40,529 nucleotides of DNA from a virus. Below, in pieces: positions 1-40,529 of the stretch; the stretch's first letter is position 1; each line of letters begins with the position of its first letter. Where the stretch lies: the IMG/VR virus record IMGVR_UViG_3300025523_000001; one strand, given 5' to 3'. The notes under the pieces are model-generated. The model had not been told where the DNA came from. It was given only the letters and a program-made list of their open reading frames with translations, and ran no database searches. A program made the position numbers and the translations under genes.

Positions 1-127
1 CACTTTCAACTCCTCCTCTTTTTCCTCTACATATTTCCTCATCAATTGTCGGATGACTTCACTCTTGTTTTGCATCAGTGCTTCATTTACGCGGTCGAAC
101 CGATCAAGAAGGTCCTGATCAATCCTG
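1..127. repeat. Terminal direct repeat, copy 1 (identical to 40403..40529)
   Basis: Bases 1-127 match 40403-40529 letter for letter. This implies a circular or terminally redundant molecule with 40402 bp of unique sequence. Confidence 0.97.
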
Positions 128-147
128 TATTGCCTCGTACGTTTCAC
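1..147 (-). CDS. Ribbon-helix-helix (CopG/Arc/MetJ-like) DNA-binding protein, N-terminal part; the ORF continues across the circular junction into 40402..40166
   Basis: GGGAGG at 155-160 lies 7 nt from GTG 147. The ATG at 153 is only 1 nt from the SD. Translation (M)KRTRQYRIDQDLLDRFDRVNEALMQNKSEVIRQLMRKYVEE fits a strand-helix-helix RHH pattern and stays in frame through base 1. Confidence 0.7.
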   Translation of the reverse strand, partial: MKRTRQYRIDQDLLDRFDRVNEALMQNKSEVIRQLMRKYVEEKEEELKV

Positions 148-190
148 TTTCATACCTCCCATAACCAAAAAGATGGACACAACATGCGCA

Positions 191-219
191 TTGACATGAT
201 AAAAGTTTGTGATTATAAT
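191..219 (+). promoter_or_regulatory. Perfect consensus sigma-A promoter (TTGACA-17 nt-TATAAT) with no downstream ORF
   Basis: TTGACA at 191-196, a 17-nt spacer, and TATAAT at 214-219. The 8-bp palindrome ATGCGCAT (184-191) abuts the -35 box. Confidence 0.75.
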
Positions 220-225
220 TAGTCC

Positions 226-357
226 ATGAACCATAACACAGGGTGTATTTAAATAGTATCTTTTTAATTAATTAACCTGTGCTATTTTTTATTGAACCGT
301 AACATGAGATGTAAGGGAAGAGGGAGCGAACATAAATCCGCTCTCTTTTCTATTTTT
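226..357 (+). ncRNA. Candidate ~130-nt small RNA (sRNA1), antisense to the spacer between the 169-aa gene and the RHH gene
   Basis: It is bracketed by the consensus promoter (191-219) and an intrinsic terminator (320-357). It has no SD-preceded ORF. An internal hairpin pairs CACAGG 236-241 with CCTGTG 277-282. Confidence 0.45.
320..357 (+). terminator. Intrinsic terminator for the plus-strand transcript; it overlaps the stop codon of the minus-strand 169-aa gene
   Basis: The stem pairs 320-328 with 339-347 (9 bp, 2 G-U) around a 10-nt loop. The tail reads TTTCTATTTTT. Confidence 0.6.
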
Positions 358-859
358 CCGGTTTCCCGAATTTTTCCGTAAGCGCAGCTTCTGATATAAA
401 CGTATAGGCGCCGTTACTTTTAAAATGGCCATCCGGATAATCGGCGCCGTCTATCTCTTCCACCGATATGCCCCAAGTTTTTGCGGCGTCCTTCGCTTCC
501 CACACCTTAATGCCCAGCGGTTTAAAAGTTTTTCGCATTTCCCGGTACATTTCGTATGCTTCCGCGCGATTCTTTCGTTTGTTATTACGTTCTGCTATTA
601 TTTCCTTTATTTTATCGGCAGCCGCCAGAAACTCATCTTCATCTACTTCCCATGTTCCAACCGTTTTATAATCTGTTTGTAGTCTAGATTCGCTGTTGTC
701 GAAAGTGGTTGACGGTAAAACCTCTCCAAGGCTGAATATGTAATCTTCCTTAACGGCATGTTCGACAATCGCAAATGCCTCGGCAGCTTTTGGTGTCCCC
801 TTTACAAGCTCCGGGTAAACAGTTTCGGAATAAGACGTTTCTTTATACACAATTTTCAT
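350..859 (-). CDS. Hypothetical protein, 169 aa (accessory island, second gene of the operon)
   Basis: AGGAGG lies 8 nt upstream of ATG 859, and the gene starts 19 nt after the upstream gene. I recognise no motif. Confidence 0.8.
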   Translation of the reverse strand: MKIVYKETSYSETVYPELVKGTPKAAEAFAIVEHAVKEDYIFSLGEVLPSTTFDNSESRLQTDYKTVGTWEVDEDEFLAAADKIKEIIAERNNKRKNRAEAYEMYREMRKTFKPLGIKVWEAKDAAKTWGISVEEIDGADYPDGHFKSNGAYTFISEAALTEKFGKPEK

Positions 860-878
860 TTTTGTTTCCTCCTAATTT

Positions 879-1250
879 TTATGCATTAATTTTAGCGCCT
901 TTAAATCTCCAAAACGCTTTTGTTACCGGTGTATATGCGCCACGTTCTTGTGCCACAATAACACCGTTTTGCAATTCAAGAAACCCTTGTTCTTTACGGT
1001 ATCCGGATCCTGTATAGTAATTTACGTATAAGCGTTCCTTCCCGTATTTTGCCCAGTAGTTAACGGAATAGGAATCGCTCTTCATTACGGAATTGATGTA
1101 GGTTTCAACATCTTCCACCGTAATTTCTTTTGCTTCTTTTGCCTCCTTCCATGCGAGCCGGAGAGATTCTGCAAAGTATTCCTTTACCTTTCCGCCAAAT
1201 TTACGTTGCCCTGCTTTAGCAATCTCCCAAGCCCGTTTCATAACGTTCAT
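879..1250 (-). CDS. Hypothetical protein, 123 aa (accessory island, first gene of the operon)
   Basis: AAAGGAG lies 9 nt upstream of ATG 1250. The N-terminal helix MKRAWEIAKAGQRKFGGKVKEYFAESLRLAWKEAK recalls a motif common in Firmicute mobile-element hypothetical proteins. Function is unknown. Confidence 0.8.
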   Translation of the reverse strand: MNVMKRAWEIAKAGQRKFGGKVKEYFAESLRLAWKEAKEAKEITVEDVETYINSVMKSDSYSVNYWAKYGKERLYVNYYTGSGYRKEQGFLELQNGVIVAQERGAYTPVTKAFWRFKGAKINA

Positions 1251-1281
1251 TTCTCTTATCTCCTTTCCTTATCTTGATTTC

Positions 1282-1310
1282 ATTGTATCATTTTGTATGT
1301 ACATTGTCAA
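1282..1310 (-). promoter_or_regulatory. Near-consensus sigma-A promoter for the 123-aa/169-aa operon
   Basis: The minus strand reads TTGACA (1310-1305), a 17-nt spacer, then TACAAT (1287-1282). The palindrome ATGTACAT (1297-1304) lies directly after the -35 box. Confidence 0.75.
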
Positions 1311-1389
1311 TACGTTTTTTGAATTTTTTTATTGGTTTTTGAAAAAAGTGATCCCGCCAAAAAATCCCAAAAAATTTTTTCGAGGCCTA

Positions 1390-1418
1390 TAGACAAAATA
1401 AGCCAATTTTCTTATAAT
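1390..1418 (+). promoter_or_regulatory. Near-consensus sigma-A promoter (TAGACA-17 nt-TATAAT) with no downstream ORF
   Basis: TAGACA at 1390-1395, a 17-nt spacer, and TATAAT at 1413-1418. It diverges from the 1282-1310 promoter across phased A/T tracts (1315-1381). Confidence 0.65.
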
Positions 1419-1552: not shown

Positions 1553-2155
1553 TTATTTTAAATTGATGTTTTCTGTTTCCGTACCAAAAGCGCCCGTTTG
1601 GACTTGTACTTTTAGATCAGAAGAATTGGCGACATCTTCGGGCACATCAAAAACAATTCTGCCGCTCATTTCTGATCCTGGGTTTAAATCCTGCATGAAA
1701 AAGCTGTTATCAATAGATCCATCTTCTTTTTGGTTTGCTGACATGCTTGCATCATCATCAGCTTTATATGTCTTAGACCCTAGTTTTAGATTGAAAAAAC
1801 TCGAGTCAACCGTTACGGCTTCATTCCCGTTATTCTTTACATTCAAATCTATGACTAAGAATGTACCGTTTGCCGTTTCCTGTAATGCTGATGGGCCAAC
1901 CTTTTTAGCGGTTGAGGTTTTTGTAACCTTGTACTGCATGTCACCAACTTTAACAGTATCGCCAATTTTATATTCTTTCTTGGATGCAGCTTTTTTAGGC
2001 GAGGAAGCAGTAGTACTCTTGCTATCCTTAGAATCTTTTGCAGAATCGTCACCCCCGCCATTCGAACCTATAGCCCCAGCGACAATAATTACAACAATCA
2101 CCCAGAACCACCATTTCTTATAAAATGGTTTTTTAGTTTTTCCTTCTTTAGCCAC
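1553..2155 (-). CDS. Membrane-anchored DUF4352-family protein (N-terminal TM helix plus extracellular beta-sandwich domain)
   Basis: GTG start at 2155 with a GGGGGAA SD. A TM segment WWFWVIVVIIVAGAIG is followed by a Ser/Lys-rich linker. YKIGDTVKVGDMQYKVT...FLVIDLNVKNNGNEAVTVDSSFF...GRIVFDVP matches the DUF4352 pattern common in Bacillus prophages. Confidence 0.8.
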   Translation of the reverse strand: MAKEGKTKKPFYKKWWFWVIVVIIVAGAIGSNGGGDDSAKDSKDSKSTTASSPKKAASKKEYKIGDTVKVGDMQYKVTKTSTAKKVGPSALQETANGTFLVIDLNVKNNGNEAVTVDSSFFNLKLGSKTYKADDDASMSANQKEDGSIDNSFFMQDLNPGSEMSGRIVFDVPEDVANSSDLKVQVQTGAFGTETENINLK

Positions 2156-2278: not shown

Positions 2279-2565
2279 TGCAAAAGTGGCTGGCCGGGAT
2301 GAATGCCCAGGTGCTCACTTTTGCACAGGCAAAATAATTTTGCATTTATTTTGCATCAATGTTTTTTAAAATGCTTCTAAAGCTTTATATATCAAGCTTT
2401 TTGTACTATAAGTTCGATTCCTGCCGAGGGCGTTTTTGGGTTGTAAAGGATTGAAAATAAAATGGCTGAATCCCTTGATATGACTGCATTTGCGGTCATT
2501 TTTTTATTGTCCGGTTTGTAAAAAAATATAAGTGTTTTAAAGATTTTTTTGCACGGATTTTGCAC
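2279..2565. other. Candidate attP: arm-type repeats flanking a core with inverted repeats and a tRNA 3'-end-like segment
   Basis: TTTTGCA(C/T) occurs at 2319, 2338, 2349 (11-bp phased pair), 2547 and 2558 (11-bp phased pair), with an inverted copy at 2279-2285. Inverted repeats AAAGCTT (2379-2385) and AAGCTTT (2394-2400) flank an 8-bp spacer. GTTCGATTCCTGCCGAGGGCG (2412-2432) resembles a T-loop, T-stem and acceptor 3' strand. The region lies directly downstream of int. Confidence 0.5.
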
Positions 2566-3688
2566 GAAAAAGCTCCTCCATTGTGTCATCCACAACCCGC
2601 GATTCAGTCTGCTCCATCTCATCCAAAACGTGCGAATATGTTTGCAAGGTTGTCACAATATCCTTATGGCCAAGCCTGCGGGATATATATTTAATGTTAA
2701 CACCCTTGTATAAGAGCATAGAAGCGTGCGTATGGCGCAAACCGTGGCAGGTAATCTCTTTAACCTTTGCTGCCTTGCAAAGCGTCCGTAACGTCTTGTT
2801 AACCGCGTTATTGGATACCAGTTGCATCTTTGTGTTAACAAACACGAGATTTTTCTTATTTCGCAATCCTGTCTGCAAAGCTTTCTTATTTTGTTCAGAT
2901 TTTAAAGTTTGCAGCATGTCCATAGTTTCTTTATCTATTGTGATCGTGCGTTTGGATGCATAGTTTTTCGTATCGCTGAAATCGTTCATGTCCTTAAAGT
3001 CCCAAGTTTTGTTTATTGTTACTGTCCGTTTTTTAAAGTCCACACAATCCCATGTAAGCCCCATTATCTCGCTAAAACGGGCGCCAGTAGCAATTGCGAA
3101 TAAAATGACATACCGGGAAATGTACCGTGGTTGTAAATTCTTCTTAGTTTCAACAACAAGCTTTTGGACTTCACTAAAATTCAGGTACTTTAATTCCTCA
3201 TTTTTCGTATCCTTTTTGCCTTTGATAATTACCTTATACGTCGGATCCTTAAAAATGATCCCTTCCTGTATCGCTTCCTGCAAACACGCCTTAATATAGG
3301 TGTGCCGTTTTTTAACCGTGTCCGTGGCATACTTAGGAGATATTTCATTTATAAATTTTTGGTACATTTCCCTAGTCAATTCCTTCATTTTCACGCCGGG
3401 GAAGTGTTCCTCCACAAGCTTTACTGACCGTTCTATATTGCGGTCATGCTCCGGGCTATGCTTGCCATTTTGGTAAAGTTCAAACCATGTCCGCATGTAT
3501 TCTGCAAAGAGCCTGTCGCCGGCCGAAATGTCCATGCCAACATGCAGCTTTTTTTCTAATTCAGCAGCTGCAATTTCGCATTCCTTCTTTGTCCTAAATC
3601 CCCCTTTTGTCTTTGTCTTAAATTTCCCAGCATCCTTATAAGACACACGATAGCGCCAGCCATTGCCTAACTTTTGTATGCTCGCCAT
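2537..3688 (-). CDS. int: Tyrosine recombinase / phage integrase
   Basis: GGAGGGTGG SD precedes ATG 3688 (MASIQKLGNGWRYRV). Catalytic motifs are present: ATGARFSE (Arg), HGLRHTHAS (HxxR) and LGHKDIVTTLQTYSHV (His and Tyr). Confidence 0.95.
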   Translation of the reverse strand: MASIQKLGNGWRYRVSYKDAGKFKTKTKGGFRTKKECEIAAAELEKKLHVGMDISAGDRLFAEYMRTWFELYQNGKHSPEHDRNIERSVKLVEEHFPGVKMKELTREMYQKFINEISPKYATDTVKKRHTYIKACLQEAIQEGIIFKDPTYKVIIKGKKDTKNEELKYLNFSEVQKLVVETKKNLQPRYISRYVILFAIATGARFSEIMGLTWDCVDFKKRTVTINKTWDFKDMNDFSDTKNYASKRTITIDKETMDMLQTLKSEQNKKALQTGLRNKKNLVFVNTKMQLVSNNAVNKTLRTLCKAAKVKEITCHGLRHTHASMLLYKGVNIKYISRRLGHKDIVTTLQTYSHVLDEMEQTESRVVDDTMEELFRAKSVQKNL

Positions 3689-3712
3689 TTTACCACCCTC
3701 CAATATTGAAAT

Positions 3713-3731
3713 AGGCGGGAGCTACCCGCCT
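3713..3731 (-). terminator. Hairpin between the repressor gene and int
   Basis: AGGCGGG-agcta-CCCGCCT forms the hairpin. The minus-strand tail is ATTTCAATATT. Confidence 0.5.
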
Positions 3732-3755
3732 GATTAAATTTCTAGCGCTAAAAAT

Positions 3756-4382
3756 TTAATACTCAATCACATTTCTTTTCAGCTTCCCTATTATTCTAAC
3801 GTTATGATTTTCATCTAATACAATTGGCTGATAGTGTGGATTCTCACTTTGCAAAATTAAAGCATTATCAGTTTTATAAACTCTTTTTAGCAATGCTTCA
3901 TCATCCACAAGGACAGCGGCAATTTCTCCGTTTTCTACTTCTTCTTGCCTGCGAATTAAGAGCAAATCGCCATCCATTATACGAGCATTAATCATACTAT
4001 CGCCTTTTGCTCTAACGTAAATATATTCTCCGCCATTTAGCCACTCGCGCGGCGTTGCGACGTAACCTTCTATATTTTCGTAAGCAATAACGCCATTTCC
4101 GCAAGAAATTTTCGCAACAATAGGAAGCATAGCTATTCCTGATTTTCTTTCTTCTAGCATTTCGTTCTTATCTAAAAGCAAATCAGATTTGTTAATATTG
4201 AAATACTCGCTGATTTTTTCAATTGCTCCGGCCCTTGGCATTTTCTTAGCATTTTCCCAGTCTGATATAGTTGATTGAGCAACGCCAAGTGCTTCAGCTA
4301 ATTCATTTGTGGTTTTATCACTTCTTTCTCTGTATCTTTTTAAGTTTTCCGCGAATATTTCTTTCACGTCTTTTCCTGTCAT
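3756..4382 (-). CDS. CI/LexA-like repressor (XRE-type HTH plus S24 self-cleaving peptidase domain)
   Basis: AGGGGGTG SD precedes ATG 4382. The HTH is TTNELAEALGVAQSTISDWEN. The S24 motifs are GDSM (Ser) and LLKRV (Lys). Confidence 0.92.
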   Translation of the reverse strand: MTGKDVKEIFAENLKRYRERSDKTTNELAEALGVAQSTISDWENAKKMPRAGAIEKISEYFNINKSDLLLDKNEMLEERKSGIAMLPIVAKISCGNGVIAYENIEGYVATPREWLNGGEYIYVRAKGDSMINARIMDGDLLLIRRQEEVENGEIAAVLVDDEALLKRVYKTDNALILQSENPHYQPIVLDENHNVRIIGKLKRNVIEY

Positions 4383-5825: not shown

Positions 5826-6144
5826 ATACAAACTGGTACCATTCGTAAACAACGCCGCAGCATTAACCGAAACGGAAAAATCTTCTTTAATGCGTAACTT
5901 TGTCGAGTATTCGGACGAAATGAGCGAGTATAGAAGCGGTTTTTTAAGTGGTATTAAAGTCGCACTTACAATTCTCGGCTATGAAGTTGTGGAAGAAGAT
6001 ACAGAAAAAACGGATCCAGCCCCTGCGGCAACAGAGGCTGAACAGTCTTCAACAATTGTAAATGGTGAGAATGAAACTGTGCTAAAAGTTGGCAATAGCA
6101 AAGTTGTAATCAATAAAACTGGCATCTATGCGACTAAAGAATAA
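5818..6144 (+). CDS. Hypothetical protein, 108 aa
   Basis: AAAGGAGG SD. No recognisable motif. Confidence 0.7.
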   Translation: MPKYKLVPFVNNAAALTETEKSSLMRNFVEYSDEMSEYRSGFLSGIKVALTILGYEVVEEDTEKTDPAPAATEAEQSSTIVNGENETVLKVGNSKVVINKTGIYATKE

Positions 6145-9400: not shown

Positions 9401-10635
9401 TGTTAGCCGAAAAAGCACTCTTAGGAAGCTTTCTGAAAGAAAACTATCTGATCGCGGATACGGCAGTTAAGCCGGATCAGTTTCAAGACGATAGAAACCG
9501 ATGCTTATTCAACATCATGAAGGATTTACATAGTAAAGGAAAAAGCGTCGACGTCATAACATTAACCACTTTAGCGGATCCCGAAACATTCGGTGGCGTG
9601 TCGTATCTAAATGAAATAGAAAGCTATGCTAACCCGGAAAAATACGAAGAATACGAACAGCTTGTCATAGAGGCATGGAAGAACCGTGAGAAAACAAACA
9701 TCCTAACGGTTGCACGCGAAGAAGATTGGGATATTAGAAAAGTAATATCCAGCCTGGACGCCATAAACGAGCAGCAAATAGACGATTATACGCCTATAAC
9801 GGATGCCCTGGTAAAGATGTATGAAGCACCATGGCAAGAAGAAAAAGAGAAAAAAGGCGTAACAACAGGACTTACCAACCTAAACAAAATGACAAACGGT
9901 TTTCAAGATGGTGAGTTGACAATTATAGCGGCTAGGCCGAGCATGGGCAAAACGGACGTAATGCTGCACTTTGCAAAGCAGGCTGGATGGTCCGGGAACT
10001 TGCCGATTATATTTTCGCTCGAGATGTCAAAAGAAAGCATAACCAATAGACTAATAGCTTCTACGGGCCGTATAAACCGTCTGAAGATGAATAATCTGTC
10101 CGCCTTAACCGATGCCCAGAAAAAAAATTGGCCGGCTATTATCGGCAAAGTAGGAGATACAAACATCCAAATATTCGATAAGGCTGGACAAACAATCGCG
10201 GAGATGCGGGCAAAAATAAGGAAACTAATGCACAAGTTTCCCGACAGAAAGCCAATTATCTTTATTGACTATTTAACGCTTATCCGGCCGGAACAGTTTT
10301 ACGGCGGGAATGCACATCAACAGGTTACGGAAATCTCGAAAAATCTTAAAAACATGGCAAAAGAATTTAACATACCGGTTATCTGTTTAGCACAGCTATC
10401 CCGGGCGGTTGAAACCAGGAACAACAAACGACCAATGATGAGCGATATTCGGGAGTCTGGGAGCGTAGAACAGGACGCTGATTTAATCATATTTCTTTAC
10501 CGCGAAAAGTATTACAAGAAGGAAATTAATGACGATACGCTCGAGATCATATTGGCAAAACAAAGAAATGGCCCTGTCGGTACAGTTTTAGCACGATACA
10601 ACGAGTTTACGGGGGTGATCGCAGATGAAGGTTAG
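9400..10635 (+). CDS. dnaB: DnaB-like replicative DNA helicase
   Basis: Walker A is ARPSMGKTD and Walker B is IIFIDYLTLI. LAQLSRAVETRNNKRPMMSDIRESGSVEQDADLIIFLYRE is the canonical DnaB C-terminal motif. Confidence 0.93.
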   Translation: MLAEKALLGSFLKENYLIADTAVKPDQFQDDRNRCLFNIMKDLHSKGKSVDVITLTTLADPETFGGVSYLNEIESYANPEKYEEYEQLVIEAWKNREKTNILTVAREEDWDIRKVISSLDAINEQQIDDYTPITDALVKMYEAPWQEEKEKKGVTTGLTNLNKMTNGFQDGELTIIAARPSMGKTDVMLHFAKQAGWSGNLPIIFSLEMSKESITNRLIASTGRINRLKMNNLSALTDAQKKNWPAIIGKVGDTNIQIFDKAGQTIAEMRAKIRKLMHKFPDRKPIIFIDYLTLIRPEQFYGGNAHQQVTEISKNLKNMAKEFNIPVICLAQLSRAVETRNNKRPMMSDIRESGSVEQDADLIIFLYREKYYKKEINDDTLEIILAKQRNGPVGTVLARYNEFTGVIADEG

Positions 10636-38515: not shown

Positions 38516-39823
38516 GTGGTAAAGTTGAATAAGATCACGAAAACAATCGGCGCGCTGGCCCTATCTGCAGGGTTGGCGTTTTCTTTTGGGCCGAATACTT
38601 ATGCCGCGGCGCCGAGTGTGGATTTTATCGACGTCAGCCATCATAACGCAGAACAGGGGCTGCCTTTAAGTTTTTATCAAACAATGAAAGCTGGCGGCAT
38701 TAACTCAGTTGTAGTTAAAGTCAGTGAGGGACAAACATATGTAGATCCTGCTGCATCTGTCAACGTGGCTAATGCTAAGCAGGCAGGAATGATCGTTAAC
38801 GCTTATCATTATGCGCATTTTACAAGCAATTCTCAAGCTAAATCAGAAGCCCAATGGTTTGATAAAAAGCTTAAGTTAGTAGGATTTGATAAGCAAAAAG
38901 ATGGTTATGTAGTTGTGGATGTAGAGGATGGCTCGCTTGAAAGTGTGGGTGCTAGCAATCTCACAGAATATACAAATACGTTTATCAGTACGATGAAATC
39001 TTTAGGCTATTCAAAGGTAGATTTGTATACCGGTAACTCATTTTATAATACGTACTTAAAACCAGGTCAATTAGCAGTAGATAAACCTTGGCTTGCCAGG
39101 TACCCACTTTATCCGGAAACAGGCCAGCCGACACCAGTCTGGTACAATGGACAAAAAGGGGCTTGGCAGTGGTCCAGCACATACAAGTTTACTGGCATTC
39201 CCGGCTACTTTGACGTGAGCCAGGACTATGCCGGTAAGTACACAAACGTTGCTAAAGTCGACAACGCAACCAACACAGGCGTAGTTAAAAAGATCGGATC
39301 CTTGAGCCTGGTTGATTATCTAAAATCGAAGGGAAAAAGTGCAACGTTCAGCGCCCGCACCAAGTTGGCCAAGCAGTACGGCATTACAAACTACACTGGG
39401 ACGGCCGCCCAAAACCTGGCATTGTTGAGCAAATTAAAATCCGGTGTCAAGCCGGCAAAAGTGAACACCACAAGCAGTAAGCTGACAACATCCAGTTCGG
39501 CGGCCAAGTCAACCAGCACAACGGTTAAAACATACACGGTTAAACGCGGAGATACGCTGTCGGGCATTGCGGCAAAATACGGCACAAGCGTCGCAACCCT
39601 GCAAAAATTAAACGGCATCAGCAACCCGAATAAAATTTATGCGGGGCAAAAGCTAAAAATCTCCGGCAGTGCTTCCGCAGCGCAATACTACACGGTTAAG
39701 ACCGGGGACAATCTAACCAAAATTGCAAAGCGGTTTGGCACGTCTGTCAGTCACCTGGTGGCGCTAAATAAAATTAAAAATCCAAACCTGATCCGGGTTG
39801 GCCAAAAGCTGCGGGTAAAATAA
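38516..39823 (+). CDS. Endolysin: predicted signal peptide plus GH25 muramidase plus linker domain plus 2 LysM repeats (start may be TTG 38525)
   Basis: The N-terminal [28 protein letters not shown] looks like a Sec signal. The GH25 motifs are DFIDVSHHN and VVVDVEDG. Two repeats of YTVKxGDxLxxIAxxxGTSVxxLxxLN...GQKL are LysM. Confidence 0.9.
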
Positions 39824-40020: not shown

Positions 40021-40045
40021 TAGCGATGGCAGGAGTCGAACCTAC
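40021..40045 (-). other. tRNA 3'-fragment-like sequence (complete T-arm plus 7 nt), not a complete tRNA
   Basis: The minus strand reads GTAGG-TTCGACT-CCTGC-CATCGCT-A. No complementary 5' acceptor strand or anticodon arm lies upstream. It matches 13 of 14 positions of the T-loop segment at 2412-2425. Confidence 0.4.
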
Positions 40046-40165: not shown

Positions 40166-40529
40166 CTATTCAGTTTTCCAAGTTTCCGCTGTTTCTTTCA
40201 TCTCCGTCATGGCCTGTTTTTCCGTGGCATGCCAGCTTATTCCACTTTCTCCGTCCGGGATGTTGTACCCCGGCACTTCGTCCGCATACGGATATTCCGG
40301 CCCCCAAGCGAAAAAGTATTTTCCATTTTCGGCTTTCCCGACGGTATACGCTTCGTCGTCATTTGGGAAATTATCACGTATTTCAATGATTTCTTTAACT
40401 TTCACTTTCAACTCCTCCTCTTTTTCCTCTACATATTTCCTCATCAATTGTCGGATGACTTCACTCTTGTTTTGCATCAGTGCTTCATTTACGCGGTCGA
40501 ACCGATCAAGAAGGTCCTGATCAATCCTG
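40166..40529 (-). CDS. Same RHH gene: C-terminal ~78-aa domain of unknown function (40166..40402) plus the duplicated N-terminal codons inside the terminal repeat
   Basis: The ORF track gives 40166..40477, and the frame stays open to the window end. It joins base 1 in frame for a total of ~127 aa. I do not recognise the C-terminal sequence IRDNFPNDDEAYTVGKAENGKYFFAWGPEYPYADEVPGYNIPDGESGISWH. Confidence 0.7.
   Translation of the reverse strand, partial: RIDQDLLDRFDRVNEALMQNKSEVIRQLMRKYVEEKEEELKVKVKEIIEIRDNFPNDDEAYTVGKAENGKYFFAWGPEYPYADEVPGYNIPDGESGISWHATEKQAMTEMKETAETWKTE
40403..40529. repeat. Terminal direct repeat, copy 2 (identical to 1..127)
   Basis: Exact 127-bp duplicate of the window start. 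It duplicates part of the RHH gene. Confidence 0.97.

Follow-up and report, generated by a model that had tools for sequence, protein, structure and literature searches.

A probable CRISPR-derived single-spacer unit with type I-B-like repeats in a temperate phage of Heyndrickxia coagulans

The viral record IMGVR_UViG_3300025523_000001 from IMG/VR (40,529 nt; the whole stretch of DNA analysed, hereafter the window) carries a short intergenic unit on its plus strand at positions 191-357, which a sequence-only reading of this DNA had interpreted as the gene of an antisense RNA. Judged by its structure, the element is very probably a CRISPR-derived single-spacer unit, in which two divergent copies of a type I-B repeat enclose one spacer-like segment between a sigma-A promoter and an intrinsic terminator. 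Its most likely role, to which we assign a probability of roughly 0.55, is to subvert the type I-B immunity of the host, either as an anti-CRISPR decoy or as a regulatory guide; this reading is suggested by the divergent repeats, the AT-rich spacer without a protospacer and the maximal-strength promoter in an accessory region. The unit adds a new and divergent example, of type I-B and from an H. coagulans phage, to the known class of phage-borne CRISPR-mimic RNAs. The genome is that of a phage of temperate siphovirus type infecting Heyndrickxia (Bacillus/Weizmannia) coagulans, the host being assigned from the named relatives of the window proteins, which belong to this species. The unit comprises the following features:

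191-219, plus strand: sigma-A promoter, with the -35 box TTGACA at 191-196, a 17-nt spacer and the -10 box TATAAT at 214-219
225-254, plus strand: repeat-like sequence psiR1, CATGAACCATAACACAGGGTGTATTTAAAT; 23/30 identical to the H. coagulans I-B repeat; Rfam CRISPR-DR3, 33.3 bits
255-290, plus strand: spacer-like segment psiS, AGTATCTTTTTAATTAATTAACCTGTGCTATTTTTT; 36 nt, 19% G+C
291-313 (nominally 291-320), plus strand: repeat-like sequence psiR2, ATTGAACCGTAACATGAGATGTA, then degenerate AGGGAAG
247-312, plus strand: predicted mature product resembling a CRISPR RNA (crRNA), 66 nt, composed of AUUUAAAU, the 36 nt of the spacer and AUUGAACCGUAACAUGAGAUGU
316-357, plus strand: intrinsic terminator, with a 12-bp stem (317-328/339-350), a loop (329-338) and a U-tail (351-357)

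A predicted non-coding transcription unit with its own promoter and terminator

The TTGACA-17-TATAAT sequence at 191-219 is the single 12/12 sigma-A site in the window, and a site of this quality arose in 0/100 dinucleotide-preserving shuffles, in agreement with the sequence-only reading, which had judged such a match to be rare by chance. The predicted transcription start site at about 226 corresponds to base 2 of psiR1. Five nucleotides separate the end of the -10 box from the start of psiR1 (5 nt), placing the repeat mimic directly 3' of a promoter in an intergenic region of a mobile element. The only plus-strand open reading frames (ORFs) after the promoter are an 8-codon ATG ORF of leaderless type at 226 and a 29-aa TTG ORF at 292-381. 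Neither has a Shine-Dalgarno (SD) sequence, as had been stated earlier, and a coding role of the plus strand was rejected.

The psiR2 hairpin leads straight into the terminator, which extends into the stop codon (350-352) of a convergent gene encoding a 169-aa protein. The minimum free energy (MFE) hairpin of the terminator has 12 bp and is followed by the tail UAUUUUU at 351-357. The hairpin folds at -16.2 kcal/mol on the plus strand versus -13.8 kcal/mol on the minus strand, where two G.U pairs of the plus-strand stem become C.A mismatches, and the U-tract is found on the plus strand only. A plus-strand-specific terminator is thus present where one had been proposed, although its stem comprises 12 bp at 317-328/339-350 and not 9 bp at 320-347. 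Because a simple terminator scan permits loops of at most 8 nt, the 317-350 hairpin, with its loop at 329-338, was not called by it. The stem is identical in all relatives considered below; the sole change within the hairpin falls in the loop (position 331), and position 314, just 5' of it, is variable.

The intergenic spacer between the 169-aa gene and a gene for a ribbon-helix-helix (RHH) protein spans 154-349 (196 nt). The predicted RNA, from about 226 to 357, lies with 124 nt within this spacer and with 8 nt within the 169-aa ORF, whose stop codon and 3' region it covers, and the ribosome-binding site of the RHH gene lies outside it. The convergent, 3'-overlapping geometry and the overlap with the stop codon described earlier were therefore borne out; complementarity is perfect as claimed, but extends over these 132 nt rather than over the entire 196-nt spacer. 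The stretch 226-357 (132 nt) folds at -30.6 kcal/mol (z = -2.9). Taken together, these features point to a real transcription unit without coding function, which faces the 169-aa gene and is predicted to run from the strong 191-219 promoter to its own terminator.

Repeat-spacer-repeat organisation of the predicted transcript

In transcript order, the unit consists of a repeat (225-254), a 36-nt spacer (255-290), a 3'-truncated repeat (291-313) and the terminator. The Rfam search that had been proposed for this RNA gave no match in the unit at gathering level, and none to the antitoxin RNAs RatA, SR4 or similar; a permissive scan yielded two sub-threshold CRISPR-DR3 matches, both on one strand, at 225-254 and 291-313. 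The start-to-start distance between psiR1 and psiR2 is 66 nt (30 + 36), and arrays of the same repeat family have a period of 65-67 nt. psiR1 and the H. coagulans I-B repeat share their final 11 nt, within which lies the predicted 8-nt 5' handle ATTTAAAT (8/8), and the psiR1 hairpin reads ACAC-AGG-GUGU. psiR2 matches the host repeat up to position 23 and is degenerate beyond, with 20/30 identical positions overall and 18/23 in the retained part. Its retained 5' part together with its hairpin (ACAU-GAG-AUGU) equals the predicted 3' handle, and it lacks the 8 nt that processing would remove. The two repeats differ from each other at 7/23 positions.

In the biogenesis of type I crRNAs, Cas6 cuts at the 3' base of the repeat hairpin, leaving an 8-nt 5' handle. 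We placed the cleavage position of the putative 66-nt product by this general rule. Under the rule, psiR1 must provide the hairpin and the handle ATTTAAAT, hence the 8/8 agreement of this handle with that of the host, and psiR2 must provide positions 1-22, hence its conservation exactly that far, after which the terminator follows. The conservation pattern of the two repeats thus appears to fit crRNA biogenesis. Two I-B-type repeat copies 66 nt apart also account for the direct repeats in the unit, for the ATTTAAAT palindrome and for the position of the terminator. A role of the direct repeats TGAACC(A/G)TAACA as operators for the RHH protein was considered and rejected, as the CRISPR repeats account for them; the window contains no more copies of TGAACC(A/G)TAACA.

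Resemblance to the type I-B repeats of the host and of natural arrays

The type I-B repeat GTTGAACTTTAACATTGGATGTATTTAAAT is reported for H. coagulans strains 2-6, H-1 and P38 (PMC8954581 Table 4; PMC3905273 Table 4), and the arrays carrying it have been typed as I-B (PMC8954581). A host I-B system with a matching repeat is accordingly present at the level of the species, in these strains. To compare the unit with this family, we used a covariance model of 27 array-repeat variants and the published H. coagulans repeat, none of them from the present phage, and ran it unfiltered on the whole window. Over these 40.5 kb, psiR1 was the top match (31.2 bits, E = 7.7e-4) and psiR2, 66 nt further on the same strand, the next (15.4 bits); the chance of the second-best match falling no more than a few bases from +66 on the same strand, estimated from the E-value, is roughly 1e-4.

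Mismatches to the host repeat occur only at naturally variable positions (1, 2, 8, 9 and the loop positions 16-17) or in the stem pair 15-19, in which the U-A of the host is replaced by C-G in a compensatory manner. When the host repeat is considered together with 19 viral repeat-like units, pairing of the 4-bp stem holds in 80/80 cells, and pair 15-19 is seen as CG, AU, UA, GC and UG; the observed covariation score was reached in 0/500 shuffles. The C15-G19 variant is frequent among the viral repeat-like units and occurs in 0/28 collected array variants.

Scanning IMG/VR with a degenerate repeat pattern yielded 28 loci, including arrays with a period of 65-67 nt (loci are referred to here by L numbers). 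The IMG/VR arrays have a degenerate terminal repeat at their AAAT-side end, as is the case for psiR2, which indicates that the transcribed orientation corresponds to the plus strand of the window. On an Aneurinibacillus plasmid (L057), the genes cas6-cas8b-cas7-cas5b-cas3 are followed by an array in one direction, tying the GTTGAAC...ATTTAAAT family to I-B cas genes in the orientation of the unit. The same plasmid carries, 5' of cas6, three degenerate repeat-like sequences about 60 nt apart (5895-6045), followed by a terminator and the cas6 promoter, as well as a further degenerate repeat between cas5b and cas3 (10392-10423). These degenerate repeats are likely to represent host regulatory mini-arrays of the GTTGAAC repeat family, and the three upstream of cas6 provide a host-side precedent in the same repeat family.

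A tblastn search of the window with five I-B Cas proteins gave no credible match, and no H. coagulans protein was among the 120 matches listed in a homologue search with the Aneurinibacillus Cas7. In the phage database, window positions 1-1400 had no match, and the 96-nt unit had just a weak repeat-level match to a C. botulinum phage.

Similar units in other viral contigs

The promoter-repeat-terminator design recurs in Firmicute viral contigs (L034/L048, L038/L039, L040, L044 and L051), with a promoter 5-16 nt ahead of the repeat-like unit, short AT-rich spacers and a terminator right after the truncated last repeat. Individual loci, including a longer series in L049, are organised as follows (R, repeat-like sequence):

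L040: TTGACA-17-TATGGT, ending 6 nt ahead of one repeat
L044: one repeat and a terminator
L051: R-42 nt-R
L038 and L039: R-21 nt-R
L034 (185-340) and L048 (6775-6930): R-27-R-35-truncated R, with the terminator right after the last hairpin, as in the window
L049 (3317-3620): a series of five or six divergent repeats separated by AT-rich spacers 27-35 nt long

In both L034 and L048 the second spacer is a variant of the first, as has been described for multiplexed arrays of viral crRNA-like RNAs (crlRNAs). Convergence with a gene is not found in all of these analogous units.

Linkage to the 169-aa gene and conservation of the promoter

An alignment of thirteen related loci with the 169-aa gene showed that the plus-strand unit is kept in 13/13 of them, which answers the question, raised by the sequence-only reading, of whether close relatives lose it while retaining the flanking genes. 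Lysogens carrying the cassette include GCA_036225645.1 and the IMG genomes 2630968535 and 2724679130. RHH homologues without the 169-aa gene upstream (L018, L020, L021 and L009) are also without the unit; it co-travels with the 169-aa gene rather than with the RHH gene. The shared cassette is 95-100% identical from about position 1250 down to 226, and homology ends at the promoter. Since the carriers are >95% identical throughout the cassette, conservation of the RNA body is uninformative, and the comparison is informative at the promoter, which occurs in three versions:

version A: TTGACA-TGATAAAAGTTTGTGAT-TATAAT
version B: TTGACA-GAATGAAAGTTTGTGCT-TATAAT
version C (L032/L033): TTGCCA-AATTAAAAATTTTCATT-TATAAT

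The 40 nt 5' of the promoter are unrelated between versions (11-12/40 identical). Variable positions amount to 1/12 in the hexamers versus 13/23 in the spacer and flanks (Fisher p = 0.0097; three versions). On the minus strand, the -10 candidate of the RHH gene (217-212) has no -35 box, and it reads TATAAG or TATAAA in versions B and C. The retention of the hexamers, with this minus-strand -10 lost in B and C, indicates selection on the plus-strand promoter. In the record IMGVR_UViG_3300025519_000044 (91,358 nt), two whole-cassette copies (L004 and L005) lie about 46 kb apart next to differing RHH alleles (100%- and 81%-type); two related prophages may lie in tandem there, or the record may be an assembly concatemer.

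These data bear on the possibility that the unit is a decaying, functionless relic of a captured CRISPR array fragment, with a fortuitous promoter match. Its degenerate repeats and the lack of a known target would be expected of such a relic, and the near-identity of the carriers leaves the RNA body uninformative on this point. However, the promoter hexamers survive in three divergent contexts with unrelated upstream DNA, the repeats are degenerate only at dispensable positions and show a compensatory hairpin change, the terminator stands exactly after the last hairpin, and the design recurs in unrelated viral contigs. We consider a relic very unlikely.

The relatives also allowed us to evaluate the cis-antisense function that had been proposed for the RNA, in which pairing or head-on interference would control the 169-aa gene or read-through into RHH, the likeness to CRISPR being ancestral or incidental. 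Consistent with this proposal, the unit is convergent, perfectly complementary over 132 nt, overlapping with a stop codon and equipped with a very strong promoter, it adjoins the 3' end of the 169-aa gene without exception, and in the window the RHH gene indeed has no promoter of its own, its -10 candidate standing without a -35 box. This -10 is, however, not conserved in the relatives. Moreover, the version C loci (L032/L033) place a separate RHH promoter, TTTACA-17-TGnTATAAT, between the unit and RHH, so the unit is back-to-back with this promoter and not antisense to the RHH transcript. Control of RHH is therefore not the conserved role, and the claim that RHH depends on read-through blocked by the antisense RNA fails for these loci. 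A type I toxin-antitoxin-like antitoxin role was not supported either: the partner, which the sequence-only reading had already set apart from small hydrophobic peptides, is an acidic, soluble 169-aa protein (pI 5.06), whereas toxins of this type have fewer than about 60 aa, and no small hydrophobic ORF is conserved on the minus strand.

An antisense function would also leave unexplained the conservation of the handle, the truncation of psiR2 at the predicted cut, the compensatory stem change and the 66-nt period; the Rfam result and the analogous units that are not convergent with a gene likewise speak against it. Because the repeat anatomy is left unexplained, the partner is no small hydrophobic toxin and RHH is self-promoted in some carriers, we do not regard antisense control as the main explanation and judge it improbable, although an antisense side-effect or transcriptional collision is possible alongside a CRISPR-derived function.

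Other coding and toxin-antitoxin candidates were rejected. A hidden minus-strand toxin, encoded by a 14-codon ORF (MFAPSSLTSHVTVQ), loses its ATG in versions B and C. The frame starting at ATG-234, which gene callers extend into a 156-aa RHH fusion, has no SD sequence and is conserved only where it overlaps the promoter. A type III toxin-antitoxin system (ToxIN/ToxN-like) was set aside because the unit lies downstream of the 169-aa gene and on the opposite strand, and the 169-aa protein has no Pfam or PADLOC match.

Spacer content and probable function of the unit

Protospacers were sought in 50,697 phage records, 72,556 plasmids, IMG/VR and the phage itself, with IMG/VR searched by an exact 22-mer and by a 35-mer in which every 6th base was free. 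The psiS segment has 19% G+C versus 41% G+C for the phage genome, in which 1.2% of the 36-nt windows are equally AT-rich; in this composition it resembles a promoter region, and it is invariant but for one single-nucleotide polymorphism (SNP) across all carriers. A 12-nt exact match links psiS positions 2-13 to window positions 4332-4343 (plus strand), in the 5' part of a cI-like repressor gene (E ~0.5). The bases at the position of the protospacer-adjacent motif (PAM) are CTC there, unlike the I-B PAMs of related clostridial systems. Given the E-value and the CTC, this candidate target is probably due to chance.

If the unit acts against host immunity, the sigma-A promoter would start transcription at the first bases of psiR1, with psiS, the truncated psiR2 and the terminator following; both repeats imitate the type I-B repeat of H. 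coagulans. Host Cas6b would bind both 4-bp repeat hairpins and cut at their 3' base. The 66-nt crRNA-like RNA released in this way, whose 5' handle of 8 nt would be authentic and whose 3' handle would comprise 22 nt, would then be loaded into the host type I-B Cascade. The loaded RNA may serve as a competitive decoy of the RNA anti-CRISPR (Racr) kind or as a regulatory guide resembling the Cracr/crlRNA group, directing Cascade to a host promoter, for instance upstream of cas6.

The same processing would also suit a targeting mini-array, in which the host I-B Cascade-Cas3 and the phage spacer would destroy a rival phage or plasmid, in superinfection exclusion or inter-virus conflict. In favour of targeting, the layout is a canonical repeat-36 nt-repeat with an intact 5' handle and both hairpins, viral mini-arrays of this kind are documented (PMC6858448; PMC11656645), and the unit lies in a lysogenic-conversion region, by a DUF4352 gene resembling superinfection exclusion (Sie) genes. 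However, the repeats of the known viral examples are identical or nearly identical to those of the host, whereas 7/30 and 10/30 positions differ here, and psiR1 and psiR2 also diverge mutually, as described above. The composition of the spacer is atypical of coding DNA in this phage, its sequence is almost invariant among the carriers, and a protospacer was absent from all the collections searched. The divergent repeats, the AT-rich spacer and the lack of a protospacer seem to favour a decoy or regulatory role over targeting, though not decisively, and we regard targeting as possible but considerably less probable than subversion of host immunity.

Several observations weigh against such a subversion. 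The GTTGAAC...ATTTAAAT repeat family is present in just 3/9 analysed H. coagulans strains (PMC8954581), and psiR1 and psiR2 are 77% and 67% identical, respectively, to the sole published coagulans repeat of this family. In the MFE structure of the whole transcript, bases of the psiR1 hairpin pair with the 3' end of the spacer (CACAGG/CCUGUG), a predicted pairing that could compete with Cas6b recognition. The spacer length of 36 nt is canonical and fits an ordinary targeting mini-array equally well. Lastly, a full or partial target of psiS was not found in phage records, plasmids, IMG/VR or the window, where self or chance matches alone were returned; the collections searched contain few H. coagulans phages, such that absence from them is no proof.

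Accessory genes around the unit

Positions 40403-40529 of the window repeat positions 1-127 (127 nt), which reveals a circularly closed contig of 40,402 bp. A minus-strand accessory block sits between the lysin gene (38516-39823, plus strand) and the integrase gene (2537-3703, minus strand), with these features:

1553-2155, minus strand: DUF4352/Sie-like gene
1282-1310, minus strand: operon promoter TTGACA-17-TGnTACAAT, overlapping an imperfect palindrome
879-1250, minus strand: gene of a Phage_Gp111-like 123-aa protein (PF07410, 1.7e-18), first gene of the operon
350-859, minus strand: orphan gene of the 169-aa protein, convergent with the unit and adjoining it in all 13 related loci
153-1 joined to 40402-40166, minus strand: RHH-CTD gene, 129 aa, at which the window start cuts the circular contig

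The RHH protein joins a ribbon-helix-helix domain at its N-terminus to a conserved C-terminal domain (CTD) of unknown function. Its family comprises about 90 clusters in Heyndrickxia, Caldibacillus, Caldifermentibacillus and Caenibacillus, and the best-conserved part is the C-terminal domain (NFPNDGEAY...YFFAWGPEYPYADEVP...DGESGI), elsewhere fused to other N-termini. The palindrome of the operon promoter is perfect in L032 (AATGTATTTACATGTAAATACATT), where the promoter-palindrome is duplicated, preceding both the 123-aa gene and RHH (2549-2577 and 3707-3735, plus strand); the same promoter type with its palindrome stands directly before RHH in L018 and L021. RHH may regulate its own expression through the promoter-palindrome as operator; the layout would then be similar to that of anti-CRISPR (acr) genes with an associated repressor (aca).

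Searches of Pfam, PHROGs and PADLOC gave no match for the 169-aa protein. It forms one 90% cluster among 5.8 billion proteins and has one remote relative, 24% identical (P0092; HMMER, 1.84 billion representatives), and its AlphaFold2 (AF2) model (pLDDT 72) gave no fold match in the PDB. Because its gene accompanies the CRISPR-mimic unit throughout, we regard it as a candidate anti-defence protein.

The minus-strand cassette and the unit might together constitute a type I-B anti-CRISPR island combining a Cracr-type guide, AcrIB proteins, an Aca-like repressor and a dual-function RNA. In such an island, the psiR-psiS-psiR RNA would guide Cascade to silence host cas6 or another defence promoter, the 123-aa and 169-aa orphans would be new AcrIB proteins with RHH-CTD as their Aca-like repressor, and the convergent RNA gene would additionally throttle the acr-aca operon through strong transcription and perfect complementarity. 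We put this broader scenario forward tentatively, as a doubtful extension of the subversion reading.

Two further elements were noted in the accessory region. A second orphan promoter on the plus strand (1390-1517; TAGACA-17-TATAAT, 11/12) lies about 70 nt ahead of a strong, apparently bidirectional terminator (1487-1506 and a T-run). The 96-nt RNA predicted from it (-26.9 kcal/mol, z = -3.8) would be divergent from the 1310-1282 promoter, and shows no CRISPR-repeat match and no convincing ORF. Between lysin and RHH, the sequence GGTTCGACTCCTGCCATCGCTA at 40021-40042 (minus strand) resembles the T-arm and acceptor 3' end of a tRNA; ARAGORN called no tRNA gene at this site, which may be an attP core duplicating the 3' end of a host tRNA.

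Discussion

The analysis turns an anonymous-looking prophage small RNA into a specific hypothesis, namely that a phage of the industrial and probiotic species H. coagulans bears an RNA mimic of the I-B array of its host. Descriptions of RNA anti-CRISPRs and of viral regulatory crRNA-like RNAs date only from 2023-2026; the published experiments that we found concern types I-F, I-C, I-E and V-A, and none of them a Bacillus-group type I-B system. The unit and its relatives among L034-L051 diverge enough to slip past the thresholds of the published finder of solitary repeat units (SRUs), and the class of CRISPR-mimic RNAs may be under-counted in Firmicutes. Such elements bear on the phage resistance of production strains and on genome editing with endogenous I-B systems, and the unit flags the adjoining orphan genes as candidate anti-defence genes.

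Strongly promoted short RNAs that are 3'-convergent with a protein gene include RatA and SR4, type I antitoxins of Bacillus prophages, and OOP of phage lambda. The unit differs from these in having neither a small hydrophobic toxin nor any sequence or Rfam kinship with them, and in containing a CRISPR repeat-spacer-repeat. CreA of the I-B CreTA system is a host-encoded crRNA-like antitoxin RNA (bioRxiv 10.1101/2023.03.03.530964) that shares with the unit a degenerate repeat-spacer-degenerate repeat organisation and acts as a Cascade-loaded, non-cleaving guide. CreA, however, is located within cas loci beside its toxin, whereas the unit is on a phage, with no creT-like partner identified.

Virus-borne mini-arrays implicated in inter-viral conflict carry host-identical repeats, and their spacers are directed at related viruses (Medvedeva et al. 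2019, PMC6858448; PMC11656645). The unit shares with them the repeat-spacer-repeat layout, dependence on host Cas proteins, a canonical spacer length and the absence of cas genes, but its repeats are not host-identical and no protospacer was found in related viruses. SRUs, or RNA anti-CRISPRs (Racr; Camara-Wilpert et al. 2023, PMC10651486), resemble it in placing a mimic of the repeat of their own subtype directly 3' of a strong promoter in an intergenic region of a prophage. Unlike an SRU, for which no repeat, even partial, is allowed within 100 bp, the unit is not solitary, psiR2 being 66 nt away. SRUFinder would discard it because of this nearby second repeat and because its identity to a known repeat is below 90%, and the portion of the SRU catalogue examined does not contain the IMG/VR identifiers of the carriers.

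Viral crlRNAs ('Cracr') include type I-B members (bioRxiv 10.1101/2024.10.29.618823), and the Clostridium phages c-st and phiSM101 carry copies of host type I-B regulatory mini-arrays, which are located 5' of cas6 and directed at this region (bioRxiv 10.1101/2023.03.03.530964). In regulatory crRNA-like RNAs of this kind the repeats diverge, and the spacer matches in part a host cas or toxin promoter; their defining feature is a match of at least 9 PAM-proximal bp to a host cas/creT promoter or to a host CreA/CreR spacer. The present spacer differs in being full length (36 nt), and we liken the unit to Cracr by its layout. The two agree in several respects: both are phage-borne and without cas genes, both place two divergent repeat-like sequences around one spacer-like segment, and both represent type I-B in Bacillota, near accessory or anti-defence genes.

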